A program made the position numbers and the translations under genes. Positions 2,129 to 38,009 of a stretch of 38,009 nucleotides of DNA are shown piece by piece. The notes beneath the pieces were generated by a model, which saw only the letters and a list, made by a program, of their open reading frames with translations, ran no database searches and was not told the origin of the DNA. The stretch covers positions 2,448 through 40,456 of the forward strand of contig CAYSAP010000001.1 in NCBI GenBank assembly GCA_964429085.1. Reading direction: 5' to 3'. This DNA comes from an uncultured Gammaproteobacteria bacterium. GTDB lineage: Bacteria > Patescibacteriota > Microgenomatia > UBA10105 > UBA927. Position 1 is the stretch's first letter; each line of letters begins with the position of its first letter.

Positions 2129-3778
2129 ATGAAACGGACACACATTCTCCTTTTTGTTATTCTGCTTCTGGGAGCAGTGCTCAGGTTTTACCGCCTCACA
2201 ACGGTTCCCCCTTCGCTTTCTCACGACGAAACGGCAATCGCCTATAACGCATACTCGATTCTGAAAACCGGCAAAGACGAATACGGGGTTCCTTTCCCGC
2301 TCTTGTTTAGGTCATTCGACGATTACAAGCTTCCCGGCATGGTGTACGCTTCCATTCCTGCGGTGGCAGCCTTCGGAACAACGGCTATGGGCGCCAGGTT
2401 CACATCTGCGTTTTTGGGATCACTGACGGTATTGCTTGTCTATCTTCTTGTGCATGAATTATTCCGGGGATCCGGTAAGCTGCGGCAATACAACCCCGAA
2501 ACGTATGCATTAGCATCCGCATTTTTCTTTGCCATATCACCGTGGCATATCAATTTTTCCCGGCAGCTGTTTGAATCCAACGGCGCGTTGTTTTTTCTAA
2601 GCTTTGCAGTGCTTATGCTGCTTACATCGCTGCGCAACGCCCGTTATCTGCTACCCGCCGCCTTGCTGTTGGCCGTTTCCGTGTATTTTTACTATTCCGT
2701 GCGGCTGGTGATTCCCTGTATTTTGCTCGCCTACTGGTTTATCAATAAAAAACAACTCGCCGCCCACAAGTTATTGGCTGCATGCTCCGTTCTTCTATTC
2801 CTTATTATTTTACTCCCTATCGGGAGCCAGATGTTTACCCGCAGAGGCTTAGAGCGCGTATCTATCGTAAGCATCGTGAACGATCCCAACTTTCACAAAT
2901 GGAAAGACGTATTCATACAATTTTATGCCACCCATCCGGACCCGGTCAGAAAAATGTTTTTTAACCAAAAAACAGCGCTCGTGTGGGCGGCCGCAGACAA
3001 CTATTGGAAAAACATTTCCCCGCTCCATGTATTTGCAAGCGGAACCAGCACGTATGGTTTACAGCACCCGTTTGAAATCCCGTTTATCGCAGTGGGTCTG
3101 CTGTTTTTTATATCATTTCCGCACCCGGGAAAATGGCTGCTGATCATATGGTTTCTGGCTTCATTTATACCCGGAGCATTAAGCACAAATCAGCCGAATG
3201 CGCTCCGCACGCTGCTCGGCTCTCCTTTTTTCTCCGTCTGCTCAGGAATAGGAGCCGTACAAATTTTCAAAGCCATAGAACAACGGAAACGGATATGGTA
3301 TGGTGCTGTACCGTTTGGCCTGATGCTTCTTTACTTTCTCTATACCTTTTACCAGTCGTACTTTATCGTGAATCCGACACGCAACGCTCTGGCATTCGGC
3401 GACGGGTACGAACAGATGATCAGATACGTACAAGCGCATGAGTCCCAATATGACCGCATCGTTATTTCCGGGTATTATTGGCGCCCCTATATTTTTATGC
3501 TCTATTGGAGCAAAACCGATCCGGAAACATACCAGAAAACCGGCTCCCGGCAGGGCTGGGGCAAATACGTATTTACCGGGGCCGAATGGGATAAAAACGA
3601 TATATTTCTCTATGACTCCTCCTTTGATCCCGAAACACTTGTGCTGCCCAAACCTGCTAAGACGCTGTTTATCCTGGCAAACCCTGAATACGAAAGAAAC
3701 CGGGAGCAATACTTGCATATCGATACGATTTCAGGGAGGCACGAGCCGGCCGTATTTATAGCAGCCTCGGTGAAATAG
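2129..3778 (+). CDS. PMT_2/ArnT-like GT-C membrane glycosyltransferase (GT39/GT83-like)
   Basis: 549-aa ORF. TM1 is followed by the acidic loop LSHDETAIAYNAYSILKTGKDEYG, typical of polyprenyl-P-sugar-dependent GT-C enzymes. Many hydrophobic segments follow, then a soluble C-terminal domain of about 150 aa. Confidence 0.8.
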   Translation: MKRTHILLFVILLLGAVLRFYRLTTVPPSLSHDETAIAYNAYSILKTGKDEYGVPFPLLFRSFDDYKLPGMVYASIPAVAAFGTTAMGARFTSAFLGSLTVLLVYLLVHELFRGSGKLRQYNPETYALASAFFFAISPWHINFSRQLFESNGALFFLSFAVLMLLTSLRNARYLLPAALLLAVSVYFYYSVRLVIPCILLAYWFINKKQLAAHKLLAACSVLLFLIILLPIGSQMFTRRGLERVSIVSIVNDPNFHKWKDVFIQFYATHPDPVRKMFFNQKTALVWAAADNYWKNISPLHVFASGTSTYGLQHPFEIPFIAVGLLFFISFPHPGKWLLIIWFLASFIPGALSTNQPNALRTLLGSPFFSVCSGIGAVQIFKAIEQRKRIWYGAVPFGLMLLYFLYTFYQSYFIVNPTRNALAFGDGYEQMIRYVQAHESQYDRIVISGYYWRPYIFMLYWSKTDPETYQKTGSRQGWGKYVFTGAEWDKNDIFLYDSSFDPETLVLPKPAKTLFILANPEYERNREQYLHIDTISGRHEPAVFIAASVK

Positions 3779-3806
3779 CAAAACCCCATAGTACGCATAT
3801 CAAAAC

Positions 3807-3835
3807 TTGCATATGCGGCAATAATATCCTATAAT
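3807..3835 (+). promoter_or_regulatory. sigma70-type promoter TTGCAT-N17-TATAAT, placed 6 nt upstream of ATG 3842 (leaderless configuration)
   Basis: TTGCAT lies at 3807-3812, a 17-nt spacer follows, and TATAAT lies at 3830-3835. Then acgcac precedes the ATG at 3842 and no Shine-Dalgarno is present. The inverted repeat CGCATAT(3794-3800)-N10-ATATGCG(3811-3817) overlaps the -35. Confidence 0.45.
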
Positions 3836-4188: not shown

Positions 4189-5898
4189 TTATTTCCCCGT
4201 TTTTGCCGTCTCTTCGATGTAGCCTAACGTCAGCAGCTTTTTTAAGATTTCTTCCTGGTACCGCTTGTCAAAATTAAACGTACCGTCTATGTCAAAATTT
4301 TCGGTTCTTTCGAGTTTCCACCGGTACTGCCTGTCCGTCAGGGTGTCATTGAGTTTAAATAAACGGAAATAATTCGCGTCGAGAAATTCCGACATCCACC
4401 AGTTATAGGTAGAAGCATCTCCTCCCCAAGGAGCGAATCCCCGGTTAAAAACAATTATCCTCGGCCGATTCTTAGATAGATCCGCAATAAGCTCATCTTT
4501 TATTTTTGACGTGGCGGCGTGATTTAAAAACCAATGGTATTTGCTCGGCTGGCGTTTGGTATTGAGATAAAACAATTCCTCAAATTCGAACGGCCCGATA
4601 AATACATAGTCATCGGGAGATACGATTGTGTTCACATACGTAGCAACCTGCGGACGGTTATAGATTAATGGCGCCGTCCCCATATATTTCGGGAAAAATT
4701 TCTGTTCCATTTTCATGGCTAGATACAACGGAGTCGCTATCCAATACAGCAACAACAGCGCATACAAAGCGGAGAGCGCTGCTTTTTGCGAAAAAGCCGT
4801 CTTTTCTTCATCGAGTAATTCCCTGAGAGCCCACAATGCAAATAGACCGTTAAACATGGAGGTGATAATGTAAACAAACGCCTGATAATCGGTTTCTCGG
4901 ATAGATTGGGGGTTACTCCGGGCATTGGAAAAAACAAGCGTGATAACGAGCGGGAACAGGAATGTCCACCGCCCCCGCAGTATGACGAGTATTATCGCAA
5001 CCGCGCTGGAAAATGCGAGCGTAACCTGCACCGGATTACTGATCGGAAATCCGACGACTCCCCACAATGCCGGTAAGTAATTATTGATGAACGTATCGGC
5101 AATCACCGCGGCGTACCGGATCGGATTTATGGCGGCTCCCGGCGCATGCGGGTAATTATAAATGTAGTAATTGGTGTTATACACGACATTTGCCCAGTAA
5201 TAATCCGCGATACTTCCGGTAAACAGTAAATAGAGACCAAACAGGATATACGGAACCGAAAGAAGTACTACACCCGTCAATATCCTCCACAGTACGGTTT
5301 TGTTGGTATGTGTAGTTACAAACAAATACACCGCATAGAGGGACAGTGCCATCACGATAAATATATACGTCATAGACGTAAACCAACTCAGGAATGCAAA
5401 CCCGCCGGCAATGATAAGATCAGCCGTTTCAAACCGCTCGTTGTAATAATCCTTAAGAAACAAAAGGGCAAAGGACGGCAGGATAAAATATCCCGCTAAC
5501 GTGTCCGCAAGCAGCATATTGCCCCAAAAATATGTTCCGGATAACCCTATGACAAACAGAAGGATCACATAAAATGACAGATCCCGTTTAGGAAGACGTT
5601 GCTTGAGCAGCAAGCAGGACCCGACCAGCAGCATCCAGAGTACTACTTCCCAACCAATACGAAATTTCACAAATGATCGTCCCGCAAATGACAGCACCCC
5701 TGCTGCCATGACGTATGCTCCCGGCTGATGATGCTGGAACCAATCCCGATACGGCAATTTCCCTTCCGTGATATATCTGCCGCCGACTATACTGTCGAAC
5801 TCATCAGGATACTTTTCGTGAAACGCATTCGTAACGAAGAGAATAAGGAGAAGTAAAAAAATGAGAACAGACCTCCAGTACGGCTTCATACCATTCAT
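4189..5898 (-). CDS. Polytopic membrane protein, GT-C-like, with a soluble C-terminal domain of about 165 aa
   Basis: 569-aa ORF. TM1 is followed by the acidic loop HEKYPDEFDSIVGG, then roughly 10 or more hydrophobic segments and a hydrophilic C-terminus. It is the last gene of the minus-strand array. The start may be M1 (5898) or M4 (5889). Confidence 0.6.
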   Translation of the reverse strand: MNGMKPYWRSVLIFLLLLILFVTNAFHEKYPDEFDSIVGGRYITEGKLPYRDWFQHHQPGAYVMAAGVLSFAGRSFVKFRIGWEVVLWMLLVGSCLLLKQRLPKRDLSFYVILLFVIGLSGTYFWGNMLLADTLAGYFILPSFALLFLKDYYNERFETADLIIAGGFAFLSWFTSMTYIFIVMALSLYAVYLFVTTHTNKTVLWRILTGVVLLSVPYILFGLYLLFTGSIADYYWANVVYNTNYYIYNYPHAPGAAINPIRYAAVIADTFINNYLPALWGVVGFPISNPVQVTLAFSSAVAIILVILRGRWTFLFPLVITLVFSNARSNPQSIRETDYQAFVYIITSMFNGLFALWALRELLDEEKTAFSQKAALSALYALLLLYWIATPLYLAMKMEQKFFPKYMGTAPLIYNRPQVATYVNTIVSPDDYVFIGPFEFEELFYLNTKRQPSKYHWFLNHAATSKIKDELIADLSKNRPRIIVFNRGFAPWGGDASTYNWWMSEFLDANYFRLFKLNDTLTDRQYRWKLERTENFDIDGTFNFDKRYQEEILKKLLTLGYIEETAKTGK

Positions 5899-5922: not shown

Positions 5923-6846
5923 TCAACGTTTCTCTGCAAGGATCACCATATTATCTTTCATGGGTATATACAGAGGGAACCGCATCAGCGGCGTGTGACG
6001 GATACGTGCATATATCCAGGAGGCAATTGGGCTTTCACCTGTCGTCCTAGCAAGGTGCAGCACATACCCCAAGCTTAACCATTTGCCGACCCTATGCCAT
6101 CCGGCCGGCTTGAGTCCCGCCATATGAAGCAGTTTGGAGACGTTTTTCCGGTGAAAAAAGAATATATGCTGAGGGGGGATAAAAAACGTCCACCGCCGCT
6201 TCATAATTCTGGCGGCGATACTTCGGGTATCTCCCGTTGCGATTATGATGACACCGTCGGGTTTTAACAGCGTCACCAATTTTTTCATGTCGGCAAGAGG
6301 CTCCTGCAAATGCTCAAATACGTCAAACATCGTAATGACATCAAAACTCGCTTTGGGGTACGTCACCTCCTGGATAGTCCCCTCCTGTATCCGTTTCCCG
6401 CCGACCAATGTACTTGCTTTCCCTACCGCAAATGACGACGGGTCGAACCCATACGCATCATACCCCAGGGCTTTTGCGATCTCCACGACATATCCGAACG
6501 CGCAGCCGACATCCAGCAATGTTCCTGAGGGCTTCAGTCCGGAAATAAAGGTGAGAAACTTATGCAGGTTACGTACAATCAACGGCTTATCCAGTTCATA
6601 ATCCGCATAGGCACTCCGTGTCGGATCGCCTTCGTAATATCCTTCGGAATAAAACTCTTTCACAAACGTTGTGTAGTCCCTTTGAAGATCAGTCTGACCC
6701 AGATAACACTTCGGGCACCGGTAAATCCAATAGTCGTTCTTATGGAGATATTTTTCAAGCGGTATCCGGCAAAGAAGGCATCGCATAAGGGGGATATTAT
6801 GTGGTAAATAGTGCTGCATCTTTCCGGCGCCAGTGCTTTGACGCAT
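5923..6846 (-). CDS. Class I SAM-dependent methyltransferase with an N-terminal Zn-ribbon
   Basis: The CxxC...CxxC pattern (CLLCRIPL...YRCPKCYL) is followed by SAM motif I LLDVGCAFGYVV and ..DVITMFDVFEHL... The start is uncertain. ATGs at 6846, 6819 and 6786 are possible, and 6786 (MRCLLC..) avoids overlap with the upstream gene. Confidence 0.8.
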   Translation of the reverse strand: MRQSTGAGKMQHYLPHNIPLMRCLLCRIPLEKYLHKNDYWIYRCPKCYLGQTDLQRDYTTFVKEFYSEGYYEGDPTRSAYADYELDKPLIVRNLHKFLTFISGLKPSGTLLDVGCAFGYVVEIAKALGYDAYGFDPSSFAVGKASTLVGGKRIQEGTIQEVTYPKASFDVITMFDVFEHLQEPLADMKKLVTLLKPDGVIIIATGDTRSIAARIMKRRWTFFIPPQHIFFFHRKNVSKLLHMAGLKPAGWHRVGKWLSLGYVLHLARTTGESPIASWIYARIRHTPLMRFPLYIPMKDNMVILAEKR

Positions 6847-17366: not shown

Positions 17367-18102
17367 ATCTAAGTCTCCTCCACGGACGGCTTCGGAAAAG
17401 TCGCCACAATCCGTATACATCTCCCATTGCCGTTTTCATTACCCGCACCGTTGAGCCCGGGTTATCAATCCACGTCACTGGTTCCTCATACAGCCGGAAT
17501 CCGCTCTTTTCACCGACGATAAGAAGCTCGCTATCAAAAAACCATTCGTTATCTTTTATATGGGGAAGTAGCTCTGTTACAACCTTGCGTGTTACGGCTT
17601 TAAACCCGCATTGGGCATCCGTAAAATTCACCCAGAATATCATTTTAATGAGTGCAATATACCCTTTGGACGTAATGGACCGCAACGCGCTCCTTCCGAA
17701 CACTCGGGCTCCCCGGGTATTACGGCTTCCTATGGCAATGTCAAAACCCCGTTCAAGAGAATGAAGCAACGAGGGAAAGTGTTTCAGATCCGTTGACAGG
17801 TCAATATCCATATATGCGAGATAATCGTAGGAGCCACTGCGCCAAACATGTTTCACTGCTCTGCCTCTGCCTTTTTGGCTTAGGTGCTCGACTGATACAG
17901 TCTGATACGTTTGACTCAATTCCCTGGCTATCCGGAGTGTGGAGTCTGTAGACGCGTTATCGGCAATGGTGATGTGCCAGGAAAAATCCGCACAGTTTTT
18001 TGATAAAAATCGGACAAGTGTAGCAACGCTGGCCGCTAACTCCGCGGCTTCATTATATACCGGCAGTACGACATTAACGCTTGGCTTTTCGTTGTTTTTC
18101 AT
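17353..18102 (-). CDS. GT2 polyprenyl-phosphate hexosyltransferase-like enzyme (DPM1/ALG5/GtrB-like catalytic domain, no TM)
   Basis: VNVVLPVYNEAAEL..ITIADNASTDST..YMDIDLS..IGSRN..DAQCGFKA..FDSELL. The codon at 18117 is TTG, and the first ATG is 18102. Confidence 0.75.
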   Translation of the reverse strand: MKNNEKPSVNVVLPVYNEAAELAASVATLVRFLSKNCADFSWHITIADNASTDSTLRIARELSQTYQTVSVEHLSQKGRGRAVKHVWRSGSYDYLAYMDIDLSTDLKHFPSLLHSLERGFDIAIGSRNTRGARVFGRSALRSITSKGYIALIKMIFWVNFTDAQCGFKAVTRKVVTELLPHIKDNEWFFDSELLIVGEKSGFRLYEEPVTWIDNPGSTVRVMKTAMGDVYGLWRLFRSRPWRRLRYGRH

Positions 18103-19735
18103 AAAGAATTGCTGCAAAAACTATAAGGGCCACAAAGGATATGCCGTTGCCTGTCGCTCTCACCGGCGTATCGGCAAACCGCATCTCCAGCAATGACTGG
18201 CCTGCCTCAATGCTCACAACCGGCAAACCGTCTGCAATACGCGGGGTTATTTCCGCATTATTAATAACATACCGCCACCCCGGAAAATATGCCTTGTTAA
18301 CTATGATATCCATGGAGCCTGCGGCCTGCATCGCGACATTCAGATCAACTGCCGATTCCCGCAGCTTTGTTACAGACAGACCGGTTCTTCCCTCTATTGT
18401 ATCAAACATAGCTTCCGATTCCTTTGTCGGCCGAATTAAATCATTGGGCAAATATTCATCCGATATTTTCGAAACTCGCCAGCGCAAATCCGCCGGCGTT
18501 TCAAACATCCCGCTCTGTGCGGCATACATATACTGCGGGACAAACCATTTTGCATTCAGCGCTATAATGAGCGTCCCAAAAAACAGCGCTAATGCAGCTT
18601 GTTTTCTCAATCCTGACACAGCATTGATGCCGATGCCTCCGAGAAGTGACAATCCAAACGCAGAGATAGCCAAAAACCGCCAAGGATATTGCAGATATGC
18701 AAAACCCGGAATCAACTCCCACATAAAAGCCGAATATTCGGTCGTAAAAAACACTGACAGGACGGTAATAAGTACTCCGGCCACAACTATGGCTTTTGTG
18801 TGCTTTGGTTTTACCCACATCCATAGGAAAAGCGATATGAGGGCGCCCATAATGTGAAGTTTCCCCAAAATAAATGACATTCCGTCTAAACATCCCGCGG
18901 CTGACCCCCCATATCCCCAAAGCGAACTCCATAATTGGCTTATACAAACAAAATGGTCGCGAAAATTAGCCGTCTCACTGACCTGACCGGCGATACTTGT
19001 GCTGCCCATTTCCAGCAGAGCGGGCAGCCAAAAAAATGCGGACAGTCCTAACCCCAACAGTACTATATACACATGAAACATAAAGCCTGACCCGTCAAAT
19101 TTTCGACGCATCGACTGAACTGCCCAATACGTCAAAATTCCGGAAACAATAAAAAGCATGGTTACGAATCCGAGTAACGTATGGGATAGTACCGCACCCG
19201 CCACACCAATAGCTCCGATGGGGAAGCGCAGATACCCGAGTGGCGACGTGTTACGCATCAGTGCATACAGAATAAGTGGCCAAAACATAAGGATCCAATA
19301 CTCTCCTACCGCCCCCCGTACATATATTTGCACTGCATGGTACGGGGCAAAAAGATACAGGAGCGAAGAAACGACAGCAGCCGGAACACCTAGAACACCA
19401 GAAACTACTGCGTAAAGCAGTATCGCCGGCAAAATTATTCCAACCGCAAACATTAATTTTGTGGCTAACAACGCCGGCACACCGAGCGCATATATGACGC
19501 CTCCGAAATAATATGGTAACGGCCCGTAAAAATTAAAAATCGGATATCCATATCCGAATCCCAAATCGGAAACCATACGAACAGGGAATTGCCCCTCCGA
19601 AAGAGCTCTCCCCATTGTGATGACCCGGGACACCTGGGTGTCATCGTGCATCGGGAAATACCCGGATGAAATAATCGGGCGTATCGCAATAAAACTTACA
19701 CAAAAAATAATAATCACCCACAATAATCTCTTCAT
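18074..19735 (-). CDS. Polytopic membrane protein, PTPS-related/GT-C-like
   Basis: The N-terminal ..FPMHDDTQVSRVITMGRALSEGQFPVRMVSDLGFGYGYPIFNFYGPLPYY recalls the 'PTPS_related' membrane family. The C-terminal ..NKAYFPGWRYVINN.. plus a terminal TM follow. It is a tandem paralog of 19732-21258. Confidence 0.65.
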   Translation of the reverse strand: MKRLLWVIIIFCVSFIAIRPIISSGYFPMHDDTQVSRVITMGRALSEGQFPVRMVSDLGFGYGYPIFNFYGPLPYYFGGVIYALGVPALLATKLMFAVGIILPAILLYAVVSGVLGVPAAVVSSLLYLFAPYHAVQIYVRGAVGEYWILMFWPLILYALMRNTSPLGYLRFPIGAIGVAGAVLSHTLLGFVTMLFIVSGILTYWAVQSMRRKFDGSGFMFHVYIVLLGLGLSAFFWLPALLEMGSTSIAGQVSETANFRDHFVCISQLWSSLWGYGGSAAGCLDGMSFILGKLHIMGALISLFLWMWVKPKHTKAIVVAGVLITVLSVFFTTEYSAFMWELIPGFAYLQYPWRFLAISAFGLSLLGGIGINAVSGLRKQAALALFFGTLIIALNAKWFVPQYMYAAQSGMFETPADLRWRVSKISDEYLPNDLIRPTKESEAMFDTIEGRTGLSVTKLRESAVDLNVAMQAAGSMDIIVNKAYFPGWRYVINNAEITPRIADGLPVVSIEAGQSLLEMRFADTPVRATGNGISFVALIVFAAILYEKQRKAKR

Positions 19736-21258
19736 GTACGTTTATATGTCTTTCTCATCCATACCAGATACCCTAACACGCTTACTACACTCAGCATATC
19801 GGCGGCAAAGCGCATCGGCGTTTCACGAAACGCAGCCTCAAGACGGTGACTGCCCTGGGGAACTACGACACGCATTACCCCAAATGCATTGCCGTAATTT
19901 ATAGGTATTAGCCGGTCGTCAATGGTTATCCCCCAGCCAGGATAATATATTTTGTTGATCTGAACGATACTTTCGGTATTTGCTTCAATGTTGACGTTTA
20001 TTCGTTCTCCTGCAAATGTCCTCGAGGTAAAAGAAACATCCCCGTCTATAACCTCAAGCGTTTCAATGGGTCTCGATAACGGAATGTCGGACACCCATCG
20101 CGGCATATATTCATTAGCGACAGTTGTCGTAGCTTCGTTCGTCGTGTAGTACCCTGCTTCCCGGTTAACAAAAATCACGCGTTGCAACTGCCCTCCCGCT
20201 CCCTGGATCCAAATAAGCAAAAAGACGACGCAAAGCAACGTGTTTTGCCAGCCTTTTACCCGTTCCAGCGCCATAGCGACAATCCATGGCCCCAATAATA
20301 CGGGGATGACCAAAAATCTGTAAGGAAACTGTACAAGCTGGCTTACTATCGGCAGTTTCCAAATGAAAGAACTCAAAGCCAGGCTCATCAGCAATCCGCC
20401 TAGTACCAAAACAGCTATGGAAATATCCCGGAGTGGCAATTTTTTTCTGGAGCCCATCAATATTCCAAGCGCGATAACGGTAGAAAACCCAAGAAGCGTG
20501 GCGTTTTCCATACTGATAAAGTATGTTTCGGGACGCGATATCACCGTAAATCCAAAACGCACGAGACCCTTTTCCAACAATGCCGGCATCCAAAAAAATG
20601 CTGCGGCTCCGGCTCCGAACACAAACGACGCCATATACCGAAGCCTGTGCGCATGTGCCAATATGAGGACAAAAATCGCAGCTCCGGCTATAAGAGCTAC
20701 TGTATTGTGACTTACAATAAGCAGCGCGACTGACGGGGCAACTAACCAAATCCAGCTTTTTTCTATGGCCAGTAGGAGAAGAGCCGCTGCAAACATTGCC
20801 AAAACCTCACCGACGGAACCCCGACGATACAAATCATACAGAAGATACGGAGAAAATATAAAACTTAGCGAACCGACAAGACTGGGTACTATCCTAAACC
20901 TATTCCTAAGCGCTATAAAAATTGCTGCGGCAGCACCAATGACCGACGCGCCAAGAATAACTTTTACCGAATCCAAAAAAGACAAGCCAATCAGATGAAG
21001 AAGGCTTCCTATATAGAGAAACCCCGGGTATAAAAAGTTGGCAACCGGATACCCGTAGCTATTATGTAACCTGCCCAAATACCGCACGGGGAATTGCCCG
21101 TTTGCCAGGCTTTGATAAAAAGCGGAAAGCCGTATCACCATCCACTCGCCATCATCGGATACGTAAAATCCGGCGTGTGTAAGCGGCCATAAAACAAGGG
21201 CGAGTGCTATCCCCATGACTATAAGCACCGGGATGAGTAACGAGTTCTTTTTTTTCAT
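19732..21258 (-). CDS. Polytopic membrane protein, PTPS-related/GT-C-like (paralog of 18074-19735)
   Basis: ..YVSDDGEWMVIRLSAFYQSLANGQFPVRYLGRLHNSYGYPVANFLYPGFLY.. and the C-terminal ..NKIYYPGWGITIDD..GSHRLEAAF plus a terminal TM. ATGA overlaps occur at both ends. Confidence 0.65.
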   Translation of the reverse strand: MKKKNSLLIPVLIVMGIALALVLWPLTHAGFYVSDDGEWMVIRLSAFYQSLANGQFPVRYLGRLHNSYGYPVANFLYPGFLYIGSLLHLIGLSFLDSVKVILGASVIGAAAAIFIALRNRFRIVPSLVGSLSFIFSPYLLYDLYRRGSVGEVLAMFAAALLLLAIEKSWIWLVAPSVALLIVSHNTVALIAGAAIFVLILAHAHRLRYMASFVFGAGAAAFFWMPALLEKGLVRFGFTVISRPETYFISMENATLLGFSTVIALGILMGSRKKLPLRDISIAVLVLGGLLMSLALSSFIWKLPIVSQLVQFPYRFLVIPVLLGPWIVAMALERVKGWQNTLLCVVFLLIWIQGAGGQLQRVIFVNREAGYYTTNEATTTVANEYMPRWVSDIPLSRPIETLEVIDGDVSFTSRTFAGERINVNIEANTESIVQINKIYYPGWGITIDDRLIPINYGNAFGVMRVVVPQGSHRLEAAFRETPMRFAADMLSVVSVLGYLVWMRKTYKRT

Positions 21259-22808: not shown

Positions 22809-23954
22809 CTAGGAAACAGAAGTGGATTTCCCGCTGCTGCGAGCCGGAATCAAGAGGCTTACAACTGCTATTCCTACGCCAATCCAGATAATTGATGTTT
22901 TCCAAAGCTGTTCAGTGACGGAATACTCTCCGAAATAGAGATACGGAGCATAACTAACTACAAGGCCCAGGGATATGACGGTTGCAAATGTCACGAGCTT
23001 ACTATAGTGCGCATTAAGCGCGACAAACGGCAGAATCCACACCCAATACCAGGGAAGAAATTCCCGCCTCAATAGCACCAGGGCAAGACCAAACATTATG
23101 GCCAAGAACATCCAGGTCACATTCTTCTTCAGCAAAAATACCGGTACCAAAAATATAGTCATAAACTTTGAGGCGACGGAGAGGGCGAGAAAAAACCATG
23201 ACGCAAGTGCATTTTTTTTGTAATAGCATATGGCCACTAACGCAAACGCGACCAATACTATATCGTTATGCCCGCTTACCAGCGATTCGATCAGAATAAG
23301 CGGATTGAGAGCAAACAACGCCAGTCCGTAAATTTTTTGTTTCGGACGTACTATATCCAAGGCATGCACAAGCGCCCAACACGCAAGGAGGTAAAAACCT
23401 GCAATCATAAACTTTGTCGCAAATAATACGAGAATAAAATATCCCAACCCGAAAAAATACGGTACCAGACTCAGCAAAATCCACAACGGCGTATATGCAC
23501 TCGTCAGATGTGTCCACCGCATGAAGTTCGTCCATGGATCTATACCAGAAAACTGCAGCGGCGTTACGGCGTAAGGATTTTGGTGATATACCAATACCGT
23601 TTTTGCTGTAAATAAATAGTTAAAAAAATCATAGGAAAATGCTGCAGGGTACGAAAACACGAGTATGACGGTCACGGCAATAATCAGCCTCCATATTGCC
23701 GCAAGTGTTATTTCCCCTTTTTTTACATAATGAAGCAGACCGGCATACAGTCCGAACAATGAAAAAAGTATGGAGACATATATAAGGGTCGAAAGCGGCC
23801 TCTGGTAGAATCCCACAAACTGAAACCCTTTTTGTATCGTTTGAACCAAACTAGCACGCGAAAGTGTGAGGTTGAGATCGACCTGCGTATAACTAAAAAA
23901 CAACAATGCAATAGCGGCAACTATGTATCCGGAAAAAGGTTTTGAATGTTTCAT
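22809..23954 (-). CDS. Polytopic membrane protein, GT87/DUF2029-like GT-C candidate
   Basis: The protein is about 381 aa and almost entirely hydrophobic. It carries ..FSYDFFNYLFTAKTVLVYHQNPY.. and ..SGHNDIVLVAF.. motifs reminiscent of PimE/GT87-type mannosyltransferases. Start ATG 23954 forms an ATGA overlap. The longest ORF extends to 24059. Confidence 0.5.
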   Translation of the reverse strand: MKHSKPFSGYIVAAIALLFFSYTQVDLNLTLSRASLVQTIQKGFQFVGFYQRPLSTLIYVSILFSLFGLYAGLLHYVKKGEITLAAIWRLIIAVTVILVFSYPAAFSYDFFNYLFTAKTVLVYHQNPYAVTPLQFSGIDPWTNFMRWTHLTSAYTPLWILLSLVPYFFGLGYFILVLFATKFMIAGFYLLACWALVHALDIVRPKQKIYGLALFALNPLILIESLVSGHNDIVLVAFALVAICYYKKNALASWFFLALSVASKFMTIFLVPVFLLKKNVTWMFLAIMFGLALVLLRREFLPWYWVWILPFVALNAHYSKLVTFATVISLGLVVSYAPYLYFGEYSVTEQLWKTSIIWIGVGIAVVSLLIPARSSGKSTSVS

Positions 23955-24703
23955 GTATATTTCCCCTGCCACGCATTTATCCGGATACGCAGGATATCCA
24001 CTAATCCCTGCGCGGAATCTTTGATAGGACTCACCCTTCTGGTTTCCACATAATGCCATTCTACCGGCACTTCTTTTATCTTAAACCCGAGTTTTTGTGC
24101 AAGAAACAGCGCTTCGATATCAAAACCGGCAGTCACCATGGGGCCGTGCACTTCATGCATGTTTCCATATAATTCGAGACGGGAAAATATATCTTTGGCC
24201 ACAGCGCGCTTAAATGCTTTAAACCCGCATTGCGTATCCGTTATACCCCTTAACCCTAACAATAATCCGCGCAATATCATAAATCCTCTCGCCATGATAA
24301 CCCGCGAAACCGGCGCACCCTCTCTTCTTCTGTTGCGGCTCCCTATAACAACGTCAAATCCGCGATCAAACCACGGCAATACTTTTTCCAGTTCCGAGAT
24401 GGGCGTTGCTTGGTCCAAATCCGAAAATAGCACGATCGACCCCTTGGCTTTCAGCATTCCGGATATAACGGTACCAGCTTTGCCTCTGTGCGGATTATGA
24501 TAAACGGTAAATCCCGGATTTGCCTGGGCGAATGCGTCAAGCAGCTTGGGTGAACCGTCCGTTGAACCGTCATCCACCAAGAGTGCCTCCCAGGCAAAGG
24601 ATTGGCGCTCCAGATAGCGCGAGACTTTATCAAGGCTTCCTAGCCGGATATTCGTTTCTTCGTTGTACGAAGGAATAATGACAGATAAAAACGGGCTGCT
24701 CAT
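23951..24703 (-). CDS. GT2 polyprenyl-phosphate hexosyltransferase-like enzyme (DPM1/ALG5/GtrB-like, no TM)
   Basis: FLSVIIPSYNEETNI..LLVDDGSTDGS..FSDLDQA..IGSRN..DTQCGFKAF..FDIEALF. Start ATG 24703 forms an ATGA overlap. The longest ORF extends to 24763. Confidence 0.8.
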   Translation of the reverse strand: MSSPFLSVIIPSYNEETNIRLGSLDKVSRYLERQSFAWEALLVDDGSTDGSPKLLDAFAQANPGFTVYHNPHRGKAGTVISGMLKAKGSIVLFSDLDQATPISELEKVLPWFDRGFDVVIGSRNRRREGAPVSRVIMARGFMILRGLLLGLRGITDTQCGFKAFKRAVAKDIFSRLELYGNMHEVHGPMVTAGFDIEALFLAQKLGFKIKEVPVEWHYVETRRVSPIKDSAQGLVDILRIRINAWQGKYT

Positions 24704-34560: not shown

Positions 34561-35011
34561 ATGAGGCTCCCTGAACTTTATGGCTTCCGTTATTGAGGGT
34601 TGTAAAACGAAAGTCTATTCGTTTTTCCGGCAAAAGCCCGCCCAGGCGCTCCGGCCACTCGACAATAATTAATGATCCGGACTCATGAGTCATATCGGTA
34701 AATCCGACGGCTTTCGCGTCTTCGGGCGTCGCAATCCTGTACAAATCCAGGTGATATAAAACGTTGTAAGTTTCGGGTATGTTATGACGTCGCACAATTA
34801 TAAATGTGGGGGAGAGCAGGCGAGTTGTAATCCCTAATCCTTTTGCTACCCCCTGGACAAATGTTGTCTTTCCGCTTCCCAATTCCCCCCAAAGACAAAG
34901 AACGCGTGGTGTACTACTCCCCTCTCTCATCAAAAAGGAATTCCCGAATTCTTTGCCCAACTCCTGAGTTTGGGCGGCGCTTTGGGTAATAGATTCAAAA
35001 GGAAATACCAT
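34553..35011 (-). CDS. tsaE: tRNA t6A biosynthesis ATPase TsaE (YjeE)
   Basis: The P-loop LWGELGSGKTTFVQGVAKGLGI sits at the position expected for a full-length TsaE, followed by ..SPTF..YHLDLYR... Confidence 0.85.
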   Translation of the reverse strand: MVFPFESITQSAAQTQELGKEFGNSFLMREGSSTPRVLCLWGELGSGKTTFVQGVAKGLGITTRLLSPTFIIVRRHNIPETYNVLYHLDLYRIATPEDAKAVGFTDMTHESGSLIIVEWPERLGGLLPEKRIDFRFTTLNNGSHKVQGASYG

Positions 35012-35391
35012 ATCAGTCCTGCTCCGATGCCGTCAATTATAACATCGCGTAAAGCTCCCTGCCGGCTCGGAACAAATTGCTGATGAATCTCATCGGTCAT
35101 CGCATAGAGGATTGTCACGATAAATGCATTCCGGTACACCGGCGCTTTATCCCCTTTGGTATCCTGCCTCCATAGTGCACGGGCAGTAAGGGTAAATAGC
35201 GCGGCATACTCTATAAGATGCAACGATTTGAAAAACAAAAAGTTCCAAACATACTCAGGAGAAACCATCACGTTGTGGCGGCTGGACAGGAAAAAAATTA
35301 TCCCCATCCACAACACAACGGGTAACCAGTAGACTGCAATCAGTTGTCCGAATGAGACGCTTTCTTTTTTGGTTTGATCAGTTGTTTCCAT
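34930..35391 (-). CDS. VanZ-family membrane protein
   Basis: 4 TM segments. ..LYAMTDEIHQQFVPSRQGALRDVIIDGIGAGL is the VanZ signature. Confidence 0.7.
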   Translation of the reverse strand: METTDQTKKESVSFGQLIAVYWLPVVLWMGIIFFLSSRHNVMVSPEYVWNFLFFKSLHLIEYAALFTLTARALWRQDTKGDKAPVYRNAFIVTILYAMTDEIHQQFVPSRQGALRDVIIDGIGAGLIWYFLLNLLPKAPPKLRSWAKNSGIPF

Positions 35392-36152
35392 ATATCTACT
35401 TTTTGGATCGCCAGAGCAAACGAAAGCAGTGCAATGCCTACTCCGACAAAAAGAAGCGCGAACACCAAAGGGTGTGCGCGTCCTGACGCGGCGCTTTCCC
35501 CGCTGTTTGTCGCTGCCGTATCACCTAACACTGCTTCATTTGAGGCAATCTCACTTGTATCCAGTATATCAAACACAACAGATCTTGTCGGTGATGGTGC
35601 ACGGGTACTGGTCGGTTTGGACGTTGCGGTCGGTGATGGCGTTTGTGTTGAAGTGGGTTGCGGCGTGTCCGTTGGAGTACTCGTTGGCGTAGTGGTGGGT
35701 GAGGGCCTAATGGCTGCATTTTGCGATCCCTTAGTAGCGACACTTAGTGTCGCGAATGCCCCAGTCCCATCGGGGCTTCTTCCAAGCGATATATCACCTC
35801 CGGGATCCTCGTCATACTGATATTGATCGACAATTACCCCTTGTGAATCAAATAACACGACCCAATCTCCCGAATTATTGAGAAAAGAGCTTGTCTCAAA
35901 ATATGGGTACATCACGTTTGTAATGTTTAGATCGACGAGTGCCTTTTTTGCACCTGAACCGGAATCGCTCGTAAATGATAAATCGTCGTCGATAAAATAC
36001 TGCCGAAGATACTCTGCGCTATCGCTCGCGTTAAAAAGTTCTACCCACTCAACACTTGAGTTGGGAACAAGTTCATTGATACCTAGCGCCAACACGCTTT
36101 GAGGCAGGAGAAGAAATCCGATGCAAATCCAAATCACCCGCGGGCAGGACAT
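35340..36152 (-). CDS. Lamin-tail-domain (LTD) surface protein with a Pro/Thr/Ser-rich linker and a C-terminal TM anchor
   Basis: A signal peptide (IWICIGFLLLPQSVLA) is followed by INELVPNSSVEWVELFN...GDWVVLFD (LTD hallmark), a PT-rich stretch and the TM segment LVFALLFVGVGIALLSFALAI. Confidence 0.7.
   Translation of the reverse strand: MSCPRVIWICIGFLLLPQSVLALGINELVPNSSVEWVELFNASDSAEYLRQYFIDDDLSFTSDSGSGAKKALVDLNITNVMYPYFETSSFLNNSGDWVVLFDSQGVIVDQYQYDEDPGGDISLGRSPDGTGAFATLSVATKGSQNAAIRPSPTTTPTSTPTDTPQPTSTQTPSPTATSKPTSTRAPSPTRSVVFDILDTSEIASNEAVLGDTAATNSGESAASGRAHPLVFALLFVGVGIALLSFALAIQKVDIWKQLIKPKKKASHSDN
35583..35708 (-). repeat. Low-complexity Pro/Thr/Ser-rich coding region (linker of the LTD protein)
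   Basis: aa 149-190: RPSPTTTPTSTPTDTPQPTSTQTPSPTATSKPTSTRAPSPTR. Confidence 0.5.
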
Positions 36153-36197: not shown

Positions 36198-37334
36198 TTA
36201 TTGCACATGAAGGTAAAAACTTATGAGGCTGCTGCCATGATCGATATATTTAATTTTTATGATACTTGAGCCGCAGGATTGGCTCGAGGAATACAATTCT
36301 CCGTCCGCCGGCGCGCGTATGACCTTGCTACTGGCAGAAACCATATCAAATCCCGTATGTATTCCTCCCGAATATTTATATACATAACTCCAGGGGGTAT
36401 GGCCGAACCTTTGCGTTAAACGGATTTGGTCAGGGAGCGGCCAATCCCAGCTTCCACTTCCAACGGTCCAGTCACTATTGGTTTGTTCATCGCGAACCGT
36501 CTTTGAGGACAAAAATCCTGACGGATCAACCCATGCGTTGTTTTTCCTCACTTCCAAATGAAGATGTTCTCCCGTCGAACATGACGGCGCGCCCGTATTT
36601 CCGACAAGGGCTATCGGATCTCCCTTTTTTACGGGGCCAACTTTTATGGAATCCGCAATAGCCCGGTCCAACGCTTGTTTTTCTGCAAGGGCTTGCGCTA
36701 ACAATCGCTGATAAACAGCCTCGCTATTGCGTGTTTGATCCAGCAATACTTGTTTTTGTTTTTTTTGGTTGGCGAGATCGACGGTATGTTTTTCCTGTTG
36801 TTTCCGAAGAGACTCCTGCTCAAGACGCTTTTCTTCCCGTACGTCACGCCGCTCGTTATAGTTCGTTTGCGTAAGCTGCAGCTGCTTATACAACTGCGTG
36901 TCTTCTTCCTGCACCTGGACCAGGTATTTAGCTCGCGTCAGTAGCTCTGAAAAGTTCTGACTGAATAACAGCCATCCGAATTGGGACGATGAAGCGCGTT
37001 TATATGATTGCGGTATCCTATGAAGCACCAATTCCAACCGCTTTGTCTTGAGCTCCTCCAAACGGCTGATTTCCCCCGTAAGTTCCCCGATTTCACCCTC
37101 CAGAAGATTCACCTTTCGTTCCGTATCCTGTATTTGTAGAGTCGTAAGTTTTATTTGGGAATCAAGAAGGGTTATTTGTTTGGAAAGCGAATCACCCTGG
37201 GATTGAAGACTTGTTATCTTTTGTTTAAGCTCCGTAATAGTCTTGTCAATCTCTTCCGTCGATTGAGCGGAAACTCGTACGCTGACGAGCAACAGGAGGA
37301 GCAATGTGGCAGCTATCCGAAGAAATATTCTCAT
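36198..37334 (-). CDS. Secreted coiled-coil M23 metallopeptidase (EnvC/PcsB-like partner of FtsX) with a circularly permuted M23 domain
   Basis: A signal/TM segment is followed by a Q/E/K/L heptad-rich region of about 200 aa. M23 motifs are present, but the order is HxH (GEHLHLE) before HxxxD (IHTGFD) and the terminal YLH. Confidence 0.85.
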   Translation of the reverse strand: MRIFLRIAATLLLLLLVSVRVSAQSTEEIDKTITELKQKITSLQSQGDSLSKQITLLDSQIKLTTLQIQDTERKVNLLEGEIGELTGEISRLEELKTKRLELVLHRIPQSYKRASSSQFGWLLFSQNFSELLTRAKYLVQVQEEDTQLYKQLQLTQTNYNERRDVREEKRLEQESLRKQQEKHTVDLANQKKQKQVLLDQTRNSEAVYQRLLAQALAEKQALDRAIADSIKVGPVKKGDPIALVGNTGAPSCSTGEHLHLEVRKNNAWVDPSGFLSSKTVRDEQTNSDWTVGSGSWDWPLPDQIRLTQRFGHTPWSYVYKYSGGIHTGFDMVSASSKVIRAPADGELYSSSQSCGSSIIKIKYIDHGSSLISFYLHVQ

Positions 37335-37348
37335 GGGCGAAATATTGG

Positions 37349-38009
37349 CTATTTCAGGTATCTTCTAAGCGCTATAGAGCTCCCCAAAGCTCCCAGACAA
37401 AAACCGATCAACATGTTGCCTACCAAAAAAACGGCAACGGAGAAAAGAAACGTAGTAGAAGTAACACTTATAAGCAACACCTGAAGCGTCGGGATGGATC
37501 CCAAAAACGAAAACAAGTACGGCCGCAACCATGCGACAACTCCGCCCAAGATGCCCGATGCTACAGCGGCACCGACAAACCCGTAAAAACCGCCTTCGAG
37601 AATAAACGGTGCGCGTATCGTCCAGGGAGAAGCTCCTACCAGCGTCAGAATTTCAATCTCATCGCGCTTAAGAGCTATTTTCATGGCAATAACCGTTCCG
37701 ATAATAAGAAGCGAATCGAGAACCAAAAGCAACGCAAGGGTTCCGCCCACCCAACGGATGGCGTTGGTCCAGGCCAACAGGGAATCAACGACGTCGCGCT
37801 GATACACTACCTCATCCACACCGTCGCTCCCTTCGATGACGCCAGCTATCTCTGAGAGGAATTGCGGATCGGTTGCGGACACCTCAAGTGATGCCGGAAG
37901 AATATCTGCGGTTACCATTTCAAGAAGCAACGGATCGCTTTGGTTTTGCTGGCGGTAAATAGCAAGCGCGTCTTCTTTGGAAACAAAATGCGTTGCCGCG
38001 ACTTTACCT
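37349..38009 (-). CDS. ftsX: Cell-division permease FtsX (N-terminus outside the window)
   Basis: The frame stays open to the window edge, and the 'M' at 37930 is an in-frame TTG. ..FVSKEDALAIYRQQNQSDPLLLEMVTADILPASLEV.. (extracytoplasmic domain) and ..LTLVGASPWTIRAPFILEGGFYGFVGA.. are FtsX hallmarks. Confidence 0.85.
   Translation of the reverse strand, partial: GKVAATHFVSKEDALAIYRQQNQSDPLLLEMVTADILPASLEVSATDPQFLSEIAGVIEGSDGVDEVVYQRDVVDSLLAWTNAIRWVGGTLALLLVLDSLLIIGTVIAMKIALKRDEIEILTLVGASPWTIRAPFILEGGFYGFVGAAVASGILGGVVAWLRPYLFSFLGSIPTLQVLLISVTSTTFLFSVAVFLVGNMLIGFCLGALGSSIALRRYLK

Follow-up and report, generated by a model that had tools for sequence, protein, structure and literature searches.

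A circularly permuted M23 peptidase domain in an FtsEX-linked coiled-coil protein of Patescibacteria

We analyzed a stretch of 38,009 nucleotides from contig CAYSAP010000001.1 (GenBank assembly GCA_964429085.1, positions 2,448 to 40,456), hereafter called the window, with regard to a gene on its minus strand that follows ftsX and encodes a protein of 378 amino acids. By profile and pairwise sequence comparison, the C-terminal M23 peptidase domain of this protein was confirmed to be a circular permutant of the canonical order. We consider it very likely that the gene encodes an FtsEX-associated, secreted coiled-coil peptidoglycan hydrolase of an ultra-small, Microgenomates-like Patescibacteria bacterium, corresponding to EnvC, PcsB, RipC, and CwlO of other bacteria, that the permutation of its M23 domain is genuine and lineage-wide, and that the protein is probably active as a septal endopeptidase. 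Coordinates of the features discussed are collected in Table 1.

The permutation became evident when the protein was scanned with the Pfam model PF01551. The whole protein scored 49.2 bits (cutoff 28.7) with a match split into two stretches, the strongest of which (residues 234-271) corresponded to profile positions 62-96 of 96. When scanned alone, the early piece of the domain matched positions 62-96 (34.5 bits, E = 2.3e-8) and the late piece positions 2-52 (20.6 bits, E = 5e-4). A previous reading of this DNA made without database searches (the sequence-only reading) had proposed a circular permutation and anticipated two partial, order-swapped Pfam matches; these were obtained, and the native sequence gave no single contiguous match in canonical order. 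For comparison, a de-permuted test sequence was constructed in silico by joining the late piece ahead of the early piece. This sequence produced a single contiguous and thus colinear match to profile positions 2-96 with 63.2 bits, vs 51.7 bits for the native domain. The same behavior was seen in phmmer searches against the PDB. For LytU (5kqb), query residues 305-377 aligned with chain residues 12-79 and query residues 229-275 with chain residues 83-132, and a swapped pair of the same kind was returned for 2hsi. E-values went from ~1e-3 for the native to 1.3e-9 for the de-permuted sequence, which aligned singly and colinearly to LytU, lysostaphin, LytM, EnvC, and others (entries including 5kqb, 4qp5, and 2b0p). 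Judged by these scores, the gain on de-permutation is far beyond chance. Neither Pfam nor NCBIfam held a model spanning the permuted arrangement.

The same conclusion can be read from the motifs. Canonically, HxxxD is followed by the catalytic histidine and then by HxH; in the window protein, HxH (residues 257-259) stands ahead of HxxxD (residues 326-330). The early piece (residues 228-275) carries the V..G..VKKGD strand and the GxHLH motif (V..G..VKKGD...GNTG..CSTGEHLHLE...DPSGFL), with H257 (36564-36566) and H259 (36558-36560) forming the HLH. The late piece (residues 296-378) carries WDWP...TQRFG and HTGFD (WDWPLPDQIRLTQRFG...GGIHTGFDM...APADGELY...IKYIDHGSSLISFYLHVQ, then the stop codon), with H326 at 36357-36359 and D330 at 36345-36347. 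H376 is encoded by CAT at 36207-36209 and is followed only by V377, Q378, and TAA (LHVQ-stop), as verified by hand on the codons of the raw sequence. The last 151 residues as read previously, along with the numbering of H257/H259, H326/D330, and H376, agreed exactly with the open reading frame (ORF), and the protein does stop two residues after H376.

To describe the range of this arrangement, homologs were collected from sequence databases. A search with residues 222-378 returned 33 homologs with 56-74% identity, most of them at 100% coverage. They originated from JGI, ENA, NCBI, and Logan assemblies, and all full-length members among them ended in ...LHVQ-stop. A profile built from these close homologs was run against the representatives of 50%-identity clusters, 1.84 billion in number; 74 of them matched at E ≤ 1e-30, and the count rose to 529 at E ≤ 1e-10. 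Of the 150 best matches, almost all were proteins of 380-420 amino acids that were matched in one stretch (profile positions 2-206) reaching the C-terminus. Based on motif order, 141 of these 150 were unambiguous permutants, while the remainder were mostly fragments or motif variants of the same type. Identities within the permuted family fell to ~30%.

The phyletic range rests on a few named cluster members returned by taxonomy look-ups, i.e. from Ca. Woykebacteria (OGY25094.1 / A0A1G1WBW0), Ca. Amesbacteria, and Microgenomates OLB23. GTDB species genomes with the permuted order comprise (i) a member of the Patescibacteria UBA10118 (60% identity); (ii) another metagenome-assembled genome (MAG; 40%); and (iii) a Ca. 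Berkelbacteria chromosome (33%). The GTDB scan with the pattern STGxHLHFE recovered mostly canonical M23 genes, with true permutants at 3 of 80 loci. Seemingly full-length permuted matches in Firmicutes and Actinobacteria were rejected, as they proved to be canonical-order genes for which out-of-order high-scoring segment pairs had been joined. The question raised by the sequence-only reading, whether the permuted order is conserved in a clade, can thus be answered positively, with ~140 clusters at 50% identity from many independent assemblies. On the evidence of these sequences, the permutation is a lineage-wide feature of the FtsEX-partner ortholog in Patescibacteria. The family members carry diverse database labels: plain M23, DD-metalloendopeptidase, EnvC ('septal ring factor EnvC'), MepM/NlpD, and, for one member in JGI, CwlO-like.

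Some very large proteins also carry a permuted M23 domain at their C-terminus or close to it, namely P0096 (1256 aa), P0170 (894 aa), and its cluster mate P0189 (2492 aa), one of which bears an Exo_endo_phos (endonuclease/exonuclease/phosphatase) domain. These proteins indicate that the module has been reused outside the FtsEX partner.

Conservation within the family was strict at the active site. H257, H259, H326, D330, and H376 were invariant in 131 out of 131 family representatives, which extends to these representatives the previous observation that all zinc-binding and catalytic residues are retained. The distance from the catalytic histidine to the C-terminus was 2-7 residues in all of 128 members and exactly 2 in 78. 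The spacing between HxH and HxxxD varied from 53 to 98 residues across 141 members, reflecting a connector of variable length. In the window protein this connector has 20-22 residues. The '22-aa linker' of the sequence-only reading therefore exists as a segment between the halves, but it does not appear to be floppy: the close subfamily conserves it, and a beta-hairpin is predicted there with confidence. The Berkelbacteria ortholog has a connector of only ~5 residues, '...NPRDYL' being joined to 'WPMSNYRITQEFG' via 'GGVLS', which implies that the canonical N- and C-terminus are near each other in the folded domain.

We also noted a cysteine pair specific to the family. C252 (36579-36581) is located just before STGxHLH in the early piece and C354 (36273-36275) in the late piece, within the loop of its long hairpin. 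Among 128 members, 98 had both cysteines, 16 had neither, and 14 were discordant (Fisher p = 4e-11, uncorrected for phylogeny). Many of the discordant members, including a sub-branch without the first cysteine, have a CxxC of their own in the hairpin loop. The co-occurrence fits a contact between the two M23 pieces, and the cysteines may form a disulfide stapling both pieces near the active site.

Structure prediction with AlphaFold2 yielded a single compact all-beta domain when only the permuted domain was modeled (29 sequences; predicted local distance difference test (pLDDT) 91.1, predicted template modeling score (pTM) 0.86). Its strands followed the order expected of a permuted M23 domain, and the connector formed strands at model residues 57-61 and 66-70 (block pLDDT 94-96). 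The full-length model (84 sequences; pLDDT 91.2, pTM 0.74) consisted of a signal helix, two long helices (50-115 and 128-201), a final helix (205-227), and the beta domain starting two residues further on. From the models we infer that the early and late pieces reassemble into a single M23 domain; the invariance of the residues, the short natural connector, and the covariation of the cysteines likewise point to a reconstituted domain. A Foldseek search with the full-length model found EnvC of V. cholerae in the FtsEX complex (8tzl_E, E = 2.4e-5) and E. coli EnvC bound to FtsX (6tpi_A, E = 9.7e-4), followed by PcsB (4cgk) and RipC in FtsEX (8idc_E), the latter two each with probability 1.0.

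In the BFVD database, the domain model hit no canonical M23 structure and matched only parts of two borderline phage virion proteins of ~1000 residues each, A0A510E7V3_3 and H6WFX6 (cyanophage S-TIM5). These matches spanned all 157 model residues (TMq 0.49 and 0.46, probability 1.00 and 0.93) at 16-18% identity. The S-TIM5 lead was dropped, since neither a coding sequence for a 997-aa protein nor a match to the family hidden Markov model was found in the 100 kb examined. A tblastn search of the permuted domain against 50,697 phage genomes gave no match.

The gene context, which the sequence-only reading had missed, links the protein to cell division. The peptidase gene starts 14 nt downstream of the ftsX stop codon, and the order ftsE-ftsX-peptidase was found in six loci (L001-L004, L082, and L083). 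In the same scan, Firmicutes loci (L011, L012, L023, L035, L036, L049, and L067, e.g. from Syntrophomonas, Thermohalobacter, and Clostridia MAGs) had, after ftsE-ftsX, a gene for a coiled-coil protein of comparable length with a canonical-order M23 domain and intact catalytic residues. An hhalign comparison of 84 permuted with 7 canonical FtsEX-linked proteins gave a probability of 100% (E = 6.8e-43). In this alignment the coiled coil (residues 24-227) was colinear, residues ~228-290 were skipped as an insertion, and the late piece (296-378) matched the canonical N-terminal part as far as YAHxS. Colinearity and position next to ftsEX identify the window protein as the ortholog of the FtsEX-linked coiled-coil-M23 protein with its last ~50 residues relocated.

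Both features looked for in an FtsEX partner, i.e. a helical-hairpin coiled coil ahead of the catalytic domain and adjacency to ftsEX, were found in the window protein. Helices of the coiled coil were predicted at residues 26-45, 50-115, 118-124, 128-201, and 205-227. The Pfam model CC_PcsB reached 21.6 bits on this region, below its cutoff of 27, and the NCBIfam model for EnvC (NF008644) gave a weak, likewise sub-threshold score of 33.5 bits (cutoff 270). At the N-terminus, residues 2-16 form a helix in the full-length model that coincides with the signal region, and the protein would be secreted via a signal peptide at residues 1-23. By gene order and homology, the gene very likely encodes an FtsEX-associated coiled-coil peptidoglycan hydrolase.

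Table 1. Features of the peptidase gene and its neighbors (window coordinates)
Feature	Position	Strand	Basis
ftsX, running off the window end	37349-38009	minus	Pfam FtsX_ECD 6.8e-11, FtsX 4.6e-9
Whole gene, 378-aa putatively secreted coiled-coil protein with C-terminal circularly permuted M23 domain	36198-37334	minus	ORF list, Pfam, AlphaFold2
Predicted signal peptide, residues 1-23 (cleavage between MRIFLRIAATLLLLLLVSVRVSA and QS)	37266-37334	minus	Hydrophobic core and VSA-Q signal-peptidase-I-type site, by sequence inspection
Coiled coil, residues 24-227	36654-37265	minus	AlphaFold2 secondary structure, hhalign
Early piece of the M23 domain (canonical C-terminal third), residues 228-275	36510-36653	minus	Pfam profile 62-96
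Connector from old C-terminus to old N-terminus, residues 276-295	36450-36509	minus	Predicted beta-hairpin (AlphaFold2)
Late piece of the M23 domain (canonical N-terminal two-thirds), residues 296-378	36201-36449	minus	Pfam profile 2-52, hhalign
Stop codon TAA of the peptidase gene	36198-36200	minus	Hand check on raw sequence
Lamin-tail-domain (LTD) surface protein	35340-36152	minus	Pfam LTD 2.4e-9
VanZ-like membrane protein	34930-35391	minus	Pfam VanZ 9.7e-13

In the known FtsEX systems with EnvC, PcsB, RipC, or CwlO, the coiled coil binds the extracellular domain of FtsX, and ATP hydrolysis by FtsE relieves an autoinhibition of the C-terminal domain. For the window protein we infer, from synteny and homology, that its coiled coil binds the extracellular domain of FtsX. 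The relocated ~50 residues (V..G..V.KGD...GxSTGxHLHFE...DP..YL) directly follow the coiled coil and precede the remainder of the domain. A short connector bridges the former termini, and the chain ends two residues past the catalytic histidine of the Y-x-H strand. The zinc site would be composed of H326 and D330 from the late and H259 from the early piece, with H257 and H376 as the putative catalytic histidines; these roles follow the homologous residues H210/D214/H293 (zinc) and H291/H260 (catalytic) of LytM. The coiled coil would relay the conformational change of the FtsEX ATPase and so gate the peptidase, as in FtsEX-hydrolase pairs of monoderms. Most likely, the protein acts as an active septal peptidoglycan endopeptidase under FtsEX control. 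This role is favored because all catalytic residues are kept, unlike in EnvC, and because Patescibacteria are monoderm-like.

Possibly, the permutation itself has a mechanistic meaning. In the full-length model, the last coiled-coil helix (205-227) leads straight into the strand that canonically comes after the strand of the catalytic histidine, and, owing to the permutation, both the site where the coiled coil attaches and the free C-terminal end lie within two residues of that histidine. It could be proposed that the permutation is a new coupling of enzyme and motor and not a neutral reshuffle, with movement of the coiled coil gating catalysis by displacing the strand or the C-terminal carboxylate, although we regard this as rather unlikely. 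If true, the coupling would differ from the autoinhibition by a 'restraining arm' in EnvC, and the family would represent both a Patescibacteria-specific mechanism of cell-wall cleavage at the division site and the first natural circularly permuted M23 family.

With respect to its origin, the permuted domain is likely to have arisen by tandem duplication of M23 in the FtsEX-partner gene and subsequent loss of the first N-terminal and the last C-terminal part. Natural proteins with two or three canonical M23 domains in tandem exist (P0151, P0156, P0169, P0177, and P0182), and the permuted profile aligns across their domain junctions, which makes a duplication route plausible. In P0169 and P0177 the M23 repeats were near-identical, suggesting recent duplications, and in P0182 the tandem M23 is fused to a BlaR1-type M56 sensor domain. 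No remnant of an N-terminal part was found between the coiled coil and the C-terminal half in family members.

Several observations weigh against the interpretation of a genuine, functional permutant with this history. When the PDB was searched with the domain model, Foldseek returned no M23 structure (best E = 0.29). As a sequential aligner it is expected to fare poorly on permutants, but matches to half of the domain were absent as well. No tandem-domain intermediate was found within the FtsEX-linked Patescibacteria lineage, and a search for remnants revealed no member with a second C-terminal part after the catalytic histidine. Also, the gene is not intact in every assembly, with at least one ortholog carrying an in-frame stop and another a decayed coiled coil.

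These defective copies were inspected individually. Short homologs (160-280 aa) were rejected as stand-alone permuted domains, as they were mostly contig fragments or late start calls (as in L083), with an in-frame TAG (L001), a frameshift (L082), or a decayed coiled coil (L084) in others. In L001 (GCA_040960175.1, JBFOMP010000004.1, 5326-6495), a frame of 389 codons is interrupted by a single TAG at 5935-5937 (...QQQKEQ*QSILTATKND...), which splits the gene calls into a coiled-coil protein of 203 aa and a permuted-M23 protein of 163 aa. This codon could be due to sequencing error, a recent nonsense mutation, or read-through. In L084 (Microgenomates bacterium OLB23, LMZU01000006.1, 2401-3498), the permuted M23 is intact (165-aa call) while the coiled-coil frame is full of stops, and the gene does not adjoin ftsEX; it is either a decaying copy or the result of a poor assembly. 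L082 (ENA ERZ1286166 contig_442, 996 kb; 2789-3828) has the gene order nearest to that of the window among the loci: prfB, ftsE, ftsX, peptidase, LTD, tsaE, tsaC, a tsaD fragment, and CAP. Its peptidase gene carries a frameshift and the adjoining genes are truncated, which suggests indel errors of a long-read assembly.

An artefact of assembly or annotation, in which a chimeric contig or local mis-join would have brought the 3' end of an M23 gene in front of the 5' part, might be considered since the exact sequence of the window protein was not on record in our look-up. The same order, the same junctions, and a C-terminus 2-7 residues after the catalytic histidine recur in the ~140 clusters, which were drawn from JGI, ENA, NCBI, and Logan assemblies and diverge to ~30% identity. 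Such conservation across independent assemblies rules out a chimera at the family level, and we assign virtually no probability to this explanation. A more serious alternative concerns the arrangement in space: the pieces could complement each other between chains, in a domain-swapped dimer or oligomer along the coiled coil, or one piece alone could be functional. EnvC-like coiled coils can bring chains together, and the missing M23 match of the domain model would fit such a scheme. The monomer prediction, by contrast, placed both pieces in one compact domain; the ~5-residue connector in Berkelbacteria fits adjacent old termini in one chain; each piece contributes one cysteine of the covarying pair; and the zinc ligands are split between the pieces with all of them invariant. 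We therefore hold complementation between chains or by a single piece to be very improbable.

The alternative that deserves most attention is that the permuted domain is a regulator and not an enzyme, e.g. an amidase activator like EnvC or NlpD, or a peptidoglycan binder in which the metal site serves binding only. Indeed, the closest structural matches of the whole protein were EnvC chains in FtsEX complexes, and one source labels a homolog as septal ring factor EnvC. EnvC-type activators have lost the zinc ligands and their LytM domain is catalytically degenerate, whereas the five catalytic residues of the permuted family show no exception. The EnvC equivalog of NCBIfam stayed far below its cutoff, the FtsEX partners of monoderms (PcsB, CwlO, and RipC) are hydrolases themselves, and no amidase gene was present in the neighborhood. 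Taken together, a purely regulatory role appears improbable, and a septal endopeptidase with a permuted M23 domain remains the preferred interpretation.

Downstream of the peptidase gene, the window contains genes for an LTD surface protein and a VanZ-like membrane protein (Table 1). The same order was observed in L001, L002, and L003, and partly in L082 and L083. The LTD protein has a Thr/Pro/Ser-rich stalk and a C-terminal hydrophobic anchor. As called, the LTD and VanZ ORFs share 52 nt and the VanZ and TsaE ORFs 82 nt; some of the true start codons therefore probably lie further downstream. A large part of the window (4189-31747, minus strand) is occupied by ~27 kb of genes for glycan and envelope biosynthesis, all on a single strand. 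They include many GT2 and GT4 glycosyltransferases, two YfhO-like and two PMT_2-like membrane proteins, a flippase, UDP-glucose dehydrogenase, dehydratases/epimerases, and a nucleotidyl transferase. In this region, no Pfam match was obtained for four large ORFs (4189-5898, 18074-19735, 19732-21258, and 22809-24059). In the whole 38-kb window (1-38009), tRNA genes were absent and no Rfam family reached its gathering threshold.

Few cell-wall hydrolases and hydrolase regulators have been studied as much as those with M23/LytM domains, lysostaphin, LytM, EnvC, and NlpD being well-known examples. Only one topology has been described in the M23/LytM literature as far as we found. The strict catalytic conservation in a large family of permutants indicates that the fold tolerates re-connection two residues from a catalytic histidine, which is of use for the engineering of lysostaphin-like enzybiotics and for studies of fold evolution. 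For annotation, it is relevant that domain databases show only two weak partial M23 matches in these proteins and that pipelines give them generic or EnvC/NlpD/CwlO-like names. To our knowledge, cell division in the candidate phyla radiation (CPR)/Patescibacteria is almost unstudied; the family identifies a probable septal hydrolase of this group and points to a lineage-specific change in the attachment to the FtsEX motor.

Like the sequence-only reading, which knew of no permuted M23 peptidase, we found no published description of a permuted M23/LytM domain in the full-text literature, with most subscription journals outside coverage. With regard to circular permutation in cell-wall hydrolases, a review mentions only NlpC/P60 families (PMC6403190). 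The permuted NlpC/P60 families (YaeF/G6R and LRAT-like) are a precedent for the tolerance of permutation in cell-wall hydrolase folds, although not in M23. For hybrid-barrel 'HABAS' domains, topologies related by circular permutation have been described across different families, with M23 as a compared structural relative (PMC11515920). Those variants offer a precedent for permutation in barrel-sandwich-hybrid folds as well; they belong to different, distantly related families, whereas the present case lies within one enzyme family. The permuted proteins thus apparently represent an undescribed, new topological variant of the known M23 family and not a new kind of system.

In comparison with known systems, the window protein combines features of several groups. 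With LytM, lysostaphin, and LytU (MEROPS M23B, PF01551) it has HxxxD, HxH, and the extra catalytic histidine in common, but it differs in the order of these elements, in the family-specific cysteine pair, and in the connector hairpin. With EnvC of E. coli and V. cholerae (6tpi, 8tzl, and 8hd0) it shares a signal peptide (predicted for the window protein), a long antiparallel coiled coil, a C-terminal LytM/M23 domain, and linkage to FtsEX. EnvC is canonical in order and catalytically degenerate, whereas the window protein is permuted with its catalytic residues kept. PcsB (S. pneumoniae), RipC (M. tuberculosis), and CwlO (B. subtilis) resemble it in joining a coiled-coil adaptor to a hydrolase domain under control of FtsEX (predicted for the window protein), but their catalytic domains are CHAP or NlpC/P60 cysteine peptidases in place of M23. 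The canonical FtsEX-linked coiled-coil-M23 proteins of Firmicutes share the position after ftsE-ftsX, a length of 380-440 aa, a homologous coiled coil, and intact active-site residues. They run from HxxxD via the histidine to HxH and end in ...DP..YL; in the window protein, the last ~50 residues have moved forward and the chain ends after the catalytic histidine.

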